A DNA stretch of 31,624 bases, from the NCBI RefSeq assembly GCF_003334765.1, contig NZ_QOWT01000039.1. One strand, written 5' to 3'. Position numbers and translations under genes: made by a program. Under the pieces are notes generated by a model. The model had not been told where the DNA came from, did no database searches, and saw only the letters and a list, made by a program, of their open reading frames with translations. The stretch's first letter is position 1. Every line of letters begins with the position of its first letter. Positions 24,237 through 24,574 of this stretch are shown piece by piece. This stretch comes from Escherichia coli (GTDB taxonomy: Bacteria > Pseudomonadota > Gammaproteobacteria > Enterobacterales > Enterobacteriaceae).

Positions 24237-24375
24237 TCAGGACATAAGCAACTGAAATTGATGGCTGGCATGACGAGGGATGCAGATGCTGATTTCATTA
24301 CCCCCGGTGATTACTAAAGGAGAGGCTAAAACGACTTTATTCCCCTGGTATGTGTATCCACCAGTAGAACCCTTC

Positions 24376-24426
24376 GTTGCCCGAATGCTGGCAGGAACTG
24401 TTGGCAGAACGGCAACATTTTTTTTG
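24376..24426 (+). terminator. Putative terminator / 3' UTR end downstream of gadE
   Basis: Imperfect GC-containing hairpin (gttgcc ... ggcaac) followed by a T8 tract at 24418-24425. Confidence 0.4.
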
Positions 24427-24574
24427 TCGTTGACCTCACCATGTCGATCACTGTGCCTGTATCCCACCTTACTGGCTGACAACCCCACTATGCCGCTGGT
24501 CTGTAAATCCCTCATATCTCTCCTCGCGCGCAATTTAAAGAACCGTTATTTCTCAAGAATTTTCAGGGACTAAA

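Follow-up and report, generated by a model that had tools for sequence, protein, structure and literature searches.

The hairpin and T8 tract between gadE and mdtE are almost certainly the terminator and 3' end of the known small RNA GadF, and form an intrinsic terminator within the gadE-mdtEF operon. The window, a 31,624-nt stretch of Escherichia coli DNA (contig NZ_QOWT01000039.1), carries the 338-nt gadE-mdtE spacer at 24237-24574, from the end of gadE at 24236 to the start of mdtE at 24575, in a locus that is part of the E. coli acid-fitness island. All 338 positions are identical to MG1655 NC_000913.3 3658894-3659231, and a K-12 coordinate minus 3634657 gives the window coordinate. At an identity of at least 95%, the spacer occurs in 5,414 of 5,426 complete E. 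coli genomes. Complete identity together with the RefSeq and Rfam matches (Table 1) establishes that this is the same locus as K-12 GadF. GadF is already known: it is listed in RefSeq, EcoCyc, RegulonDB and Rfam, and has been followed by northern blotting, Hfq co-immunoprecipitation, RIL-seq, CLASH and Term-seq. The useful yield is a precise map of GadF in window coordinates; the finding itself adds nothing new.

Table 1. Features of the gadE-mdtE region in window coordinates; identities are those of four divergent lineages to the window.
Feature	Position	Strand	Identity	Basis and details
gadE coding sequence, parent mRNA of GadF	23709-24236	+		ORF list; K-12 RefSeq 3658366-3658893 by offset
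Spacer segment next to gadE	24237-24251		40-53%	
Conserved gadE 3'UTR block, 83 nt	24252-24334	+	87-89%	As conserved as GadF
ORF, 97 codons	24280-24573	+		Spans GadF and its terminator, with a TAA stop 1 nt ahead of the mdtE ATG
GadF sRNA (b4718), 91 nt	24335-24425	+	86-88%	Transferred from RefSeq K-12 ncRNA 3658992-3659082, 'small regulatory RNA GadF'
Predicted GadF stem-loop 1	24340-24369	+		MFE and centroid fold
Seed 1, CCCCUGG	24342-24348	+		Complement of the CLASH target motif CCAGGGG
Rfam RF02754 (ES205) match, 72-nt form	24354-24425	+		105 bits against a gathering score of 86; E 1e-17; model positions 1-72 of 72
Seed 2, CACCAG	24359-24364	+		Complement of the target motif CUGGUG
Terminator hairpin	24376-24416	+		6-bp outer stem, 4x4 internal loop, 9-bp inner stem, GAA loop
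U8 tract, transcript 3' end, presumed Hfq-binding tail	24418-24425	+		Sequence, species alignments, Term-seq
mdtE read-through leader	24426-24574	+		Variable C-rich part followed by conserved part
Leader, variable C-rich part	24426-24490	+	58-71%	
Leader, conserved part	24491-24574	+	82-92%	
mdtE Shine-Dalgarno, AGGGA	24565-24569	+		
mdtE coding sequence, K-12 start	24575-25732	+		ORF list, RefSeq; expression by read-through

The outer stem of the hairpin is formed by GUUGCC (24376-24381) and GGCAAC (24411-24416), and the inner stem by nine pairs between 24386-24394 and 24398-24406, three of them G.U, with 4-nt internal loops on both sides. A single A at 24417 separates the stem from T8, whose last T coincides with the annotated gadF 3' end and lies 150 nt upstream of the mdtE ATG. 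The original prediction, made from the letters of the DNA, had described such a hairpin in a 338-nt gap about 150 nt before mdtE; hairpin, gap and distance are all real, and only its end coordinate, 24426, lies 1 nt too far, since 24426 is a G and T8 stops at 24425. Folded alone, the 41-nt hairpin reaches -19.0 kcal/mol (z = -3.91), and none of 200 dinucleotide-preserving shuffles was equally stable. Across the 45 T-runs of at least six on both strands of the window, the fold upstream of this T8 is the most stable (-20.5 kcal/mol); the GadY terminator attains -17.6 kcal/mol. Folding of the opposite strand turns the three G.U pairs into mismatches, shrinks the inner stem and gives a weaker hairpin, which ties this structure to the + strand RNA. 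The site presents what defines an intrinsic terminator, a stable GC-rich hairpin that leads into a U-tract on the transcribed strand.

Published Term-seq data place a transcript 3' end at K-12 3659081 (+), which is window position 24424, and the flanking sequence printed in the Term-seq table agrees with the window (Adams et al. 2021; PMC7815308 supplementary file 1). Together with the hairpin statistics, this end supports the proposed role of the site as a terminator for gadE transcripts. A consensus terminator scan of the window did not include the GadF site among its calls. We infer that the scanner missed it because its rule demands one contiguous stem, closed by a 3-8-nt loop and abutting the T-run, which the internal loops of this hairpin do not allow; since folding, shuffles and Term-seq support the site, we discount this negative as a shortcoming of the pattern.

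The RNA that ends at this terminator has been described more than once. Melamed et al. 2016 gave the name GadF to the gadE 3'UTR RNA, which they detected as an autonomous northern band and by Hfq co-immunoprecipitation; in stationary-phase RIL-seq it was abundant and always the second RNA in chimeras (PMC5145812). These authors deduced that GadF is processed out of the gadE transcript, as full-length gadE mRNA was seen with the GadF probe and GadF falls after treatment with a 5'-phosphate-dependent exonuclease (TEX sensitivity). The northern result was confirmed by Iosub et al. 2020 (PMC7213987). In Rau et al. 2015 (PMC4676190), ES205 is the name of a 72-nt RNA-seq transcript at this locus. 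The RNA encoded in the window agrees with GadF of E. coli K-12 (b4718) and ES205 in sequence, position, gadE 3'UTR context and the presence of mdtE downstream, and differs from them in nothing save the 5' end, which depends on the source: 24335 in RefSeq (91 nt) and 24354 in ES205 and Rfam (72 nt). The suggestion that a GadF-like RNA is released from the gadE 3'UTR is thereby borne out by annotation and by published northern and co-immunoprecipitation data, and the ends that it had left unplaced can now be assigned, the 5' end to 24335 as annotated or alternatively 24354 and the 3' end to 24424/24425. Published data contradict both of the absences that had been named as refuting it, that of a 3' end at about 24425 and that of a stable short RNA.

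We scanned for GadE in one genome per species and recovered eight loci, six of them from Escherichia (E. coli, E. albertii and E. whittamii as well as further clades) and two on contigs that resemble E. coli but belong to assemblies with the labels Flavobacterium and Streptomyces. ES205 matched in all eight, at the same distance after gadE. Segment identities (Table 1) compare the window with four divergent lineages (E. albertii, E. whittamii and cryptic clades), and gadE third codon positions, 74-76% identical, serve as a near-neutral benchmark. At 86-88% against this benchmark, GadF is under constraint. The species alignments show no change in the outer stem, the U8 tract or either seed (7/7 Escherichia lineages for the seeds), and hairpin pairing is kept, with 96% of cells paired across species compared to 20-59% in slid controls. 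Variation in the inner stem is one-sided only, from G.U to G-C or A-U. Two-sided compensatory changes were absent among the seven distinct sequences, so covariation gives no independent proof of the fold. Within GadF, just two differences mark the phylogroup-B2 allele (S88), both of them in loops (24384 and 24395).

Three of the related sequences are unusual. E. coli TB354 (NZ_AP038814.1) carries an IS5 element (L011 1443-2500) between gadE and GadF, at about window positions 24317-24325; this insertion would cut GadF and mdtEF off from the gadE promoters. The contigs from the non-enterobacterial assemblies labelled Flavobacterium paronense (L009) and Streptomyces sp. DH24 (L010) are short, hold near-identical E. 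coli gadE-GadF-mdtE sequence and most likely represent contamination. The former reads T9 where the window has T8, and its gadE match reaches only 73%, both suggestive of homopolymer or indel errors in the sequencing.

The 338-nt spacer had been described as structured, and this description applies only to the GadF part of it. Folding of the whole spacer showed no excess structure over shuffles (z = -0.24), and neither did segments 24237-24334 and 24426-24574 (z = +0.60 and +0.66). We therefore rejected a structured 3' region beyond GadF, as the remainder folds no better than shuffles. The 91-nt GadF itself folds at -26.4 kcal/mol (z = -2.30). Besides the terminator hairpin, its predicted fold contains a stem-loop 1 with a core of CUGGU (24345-24349) paired to ACCAG (24360-24364) and three outer pairs. 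The core stem is invariant, so covariation is uninformative either way.

GadF chimeras recovered by CLASH yielded two target-side motifs, CCAGGGG and CUGGUG (Iosub et al. 2020, PMC7213987), to which the two seeds are complementary. The predicted arms of stem-loop 1 carry seed 1 and seed 2 paired with each other, which makes the accessibility of the seeds uncertain. The RIL-seq target set of GadF is enriched in acid-response genes, and GFP reporters for acrB and cfa were up-regulated by GadF overexpression, with delta-hfq cells in parallel (PMC5145812). In a later study a cfa'-'lacZ fusion was activated only ~1.2-fold by GadF and no footprint was found on cfa mRNA (PMC6755755); because of this small effect and the missing footprint, the regulatory strength of GadF appears modest or target-dependent.

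The same cfa results could also be taken to mean that the site is a terminator only, conserved for termination and gadE mRNA stability, and that the short RNA is a stable, Hfq-protected remnant of gadE decay that does little or nothing as a regulator in trans. One review table that gives the function of GadF as 'unknown' points in this direction, as does the accessible part of Rau et al. 2015 (PMC4676190), in which no phenotype is reported. We nevertheless consider this reading unlikely. Positions 24337-24349 and 24353-24367 are dispensable for termination and yet invariant, despite a neutral divergence of 24-26%, and it is precisely to these stretches that the motifs recurring in RIL-seq and CLASH chimeras are complementary (PMC5145812, PMC7213987). 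The response of the acrB and cfa GFP reporters to overexpressed GadF likewise argues against it.

The reading that we prefer, GadF as a functional sRNA sharing the terminator of its parent mRNA, can be set out as a pathway. Transcription would start at the gadE promoters and most polymerases would stop at the hairpin and U8, leaving 3' ends at 24424/24425. Cleavage of the ~190-nt 3'UTR would then yield the 91-nt GadF with its 5' end at 24335, and possibly the 72-nt form with its 5' end at 24354. Judging only by motif resemblance, the nuclease is probably RNase E. This enzyme is said to prefer RN/WUU, reportedly on the evidence of Chao and colleagues in 2017. AC/UUU at 24334-24338 fits this pattern, and a cut after AC would place the predicted 5' end at 24336, no more than 1 nt from the annotated one. 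Hfq would bind the hairpin and U-tail, and the seeds CCCCUGG and CACCAG would pair with target mRNAs, of which acrB, cfa and the RIL-seq set have been reported. A minority of polymerases would read through into the 150-nt leader and mdtEF.

Conservation extends upstream of GadF into the block at 24252-24334 (Table 1). In RNAalifold predictions, 24268-24279 pairs with 24343-24355 and covers seed 1 in the precursor; this pairing shows three pairing-preserving one-sided changes and no compensatory ones. Candidate roles for the block are precursor or processing context, anti-seed partner, or start region of the + strand ORF that crosses GadF. On the predicted pairing, the block may mask the CCCCUGG seed in unprocessed gadE mRNA, separately from or instead of any effect of translating the ORF.

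The terminator lies upstream of genes that probably depend on transcription across it. RT-PCR evidence summarised by Deng et al. 2013 shows that mdtEF is co-transcribed with gadE, and in the same study a spacer-lacZ fusion was inactive both aerobically and anaerobically while PgadE-lacZ was induced (PMC3708157). Our scan for sigma-70-like promoters likewise found no site in the spacer. Since mdtEF expression starts from the gadE promoter, we infer that the terminator of GadF leaks. The partial read-through into mdtEF that had been envisaged at the outset thus finds its support in published co-transcription and in a spacer that alone drove no lacZ. One gadE promoter region would in this way deliver a regulator, GadE, an sRNA, GadF, and by read-through the MdtEF pump. 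In the available portion of SMRT-Cappable-seq data we found no GadF transcription start or termination site, a weak negative.

This arrangement resembles two known classes of element. CpxQ (from cpxP), SdhX (from sdhCDAB-sucABCD), SroC and MicL-S are, like GadF, sRNAs without a promoter of their own; in these RNAs and in GadF, the terminator hairpin and U-tail of the parent serve as the Hfq module, one or more conserved seeds lie upstream, and the sRNA acts in the pathway of the protein encoded by the parent mRNA. Unlike in that class, the terminator that GadF shares with its parent lies inside an operon, gadE-mdtEF, and not at its end. As a result, making the GadF 3' end and expressing the efflux genes further down are in competition. 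Leaky intrinsic terminators within operons, through which promoter-proximal and distal genes come to be expressed at different levels, are similar in that a GC-rich hairpin and U-tract lie between co-transcribed genes and the spacer supplies no active promoter for the distal ones; the GadF site differs in having no known ligand, leader peptide or antiterminator structure.

Downstream of the terminator, the leader is C-rich and G-poor over 24420-24540 (GC skew -0.29 to -0.45), and RNA of this composition is typical of Rho loading sites. The dataset of Adams et al. 2021 lists no Rho-termination region at the GadF terminator or near the mdtE leader. The spacer also contains the + strand ORF of 97 codons, whose second ATG (24286) lies 6 nt after a conserved GAGGG and whose end reads TAAAATG at mdtE. 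This ORF stays uninterrupted throughout the seven Escherichia lineages, which differ in its internal length by 9 and 12 nt. In permutations of alignment column patterns, the frame stayed open in all seven sequences in 29 of 5000 unrestricted and 89 of 10000 within-segment trials (0.6-0.9%), although the test was post hoc over six frames and the corrected p is ~0.05. Variable columns are spread evenly over the three codon positions (31/37/38), compared with, for example, 9/3/42 in gadE as a coding calibration. An NCBIfam search returned no family for this ORF or for an ORF on the opposite strand, and sources name the + strand ORF only 'hypothetical protein'. We rejected the + strand ORF as a conventional protein gene, given that it shows no codon-position bias and no family; at most, the act of translating it might matter.

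Were that the case, ribosomes moving from 24286 or 24280 to 24573 would suppress the hairpin, shield the leader from Rho and set the ratio of GadF to mdtEF, and translation would decide between sRNA and MdtEF efflux pump. The rarity of such a conserved open frame among permutations, with length differences of 9 and 12 nt, favours this idea, as do the GAGGG ahead of the second ATG, the TAAAATG junction and the excess of C over G in the leader. We regard it as very improbable, however, since the variation is even over codon positions, the amino-acid changes are radical, no NCBIfam family matches, the corrected p reaches only ~0.05 and mdtE has a good Shine-Dalgarno of its own; within the published supplementary data searched, ribosome-profiling evidence was absent, a weak negative. 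The least credible alternative is that the 72-nt ES205 is an independent sRNA gene with its own promoter in the gadE 3'UTR and a start at 24354, as would be suggested by Rau et al. (PMC4676190), where this start is listed as coinciding with an already published TSS, and by the beginning of the Rfam model at 24354, but 24237-24354 contains no sigma-70-like promoter, the CCCCTG 7-12 nt upstream of 24354 is by eye unlike a -10 box, the spacer-lacZ fusion had no promoter activity (PMC3708157) and the conserved block reaches well upstream of 24354. With GadF read as a processed sRNA ending at a leaky terminator, the conserved open frame and the upstream block represent a small residual novelty and offer cheap leads on the split between GadF and mdtEF.

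Current annotations of this region differ from the GadF map in two respects. PGAP predicts a 92-aa 'hypothetical protein' (WP_001205329.1) at 24237-24515 on the - strand, opposite GadF, and the E. coli genomes with this annotation number in the thousands. Its frame is broken in two species, by three stops in L005 and one in L007, and its variable columns fall 35/30/40 by codon position. We rejected it as a real gene because of the broken frame and the lack of codon-position bias; it is probably spurious and masks the gadF ncRNA in those annotations. In addition, PGAP records begin mdtE at 24623 (MLTACDD...), whereas the K-12 annotation begins it at 24575 (MNRRRKLLIPLLFCGAMLTAC...). A basic and hydrophobic signal peptide before the LTAC lipobox is found only in the longer form, and the PGAP start therefore looks 16 codons too short.

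Several other small RNA loci were found in the window. Rfam matches above the gathering score include GadY (150 bits, 30204-30317, +), two copies of AgrB (14605-14688 and 14836-14919, +, with 106 and 108 bits) and ES036 (42 bits, 5787-5827, +). ArrS (K-12 3657985-3658054, -) corresponds by coordinate transfer to window 23328-23397 and has no Rfam match. The second strongest terminator-like site of the window, a T7 at 5897-5903 (+) after a 9-bp GC-rich hairpin of -18.4 kcal/mol, lies ~70 nt downstream of the ES036 match.
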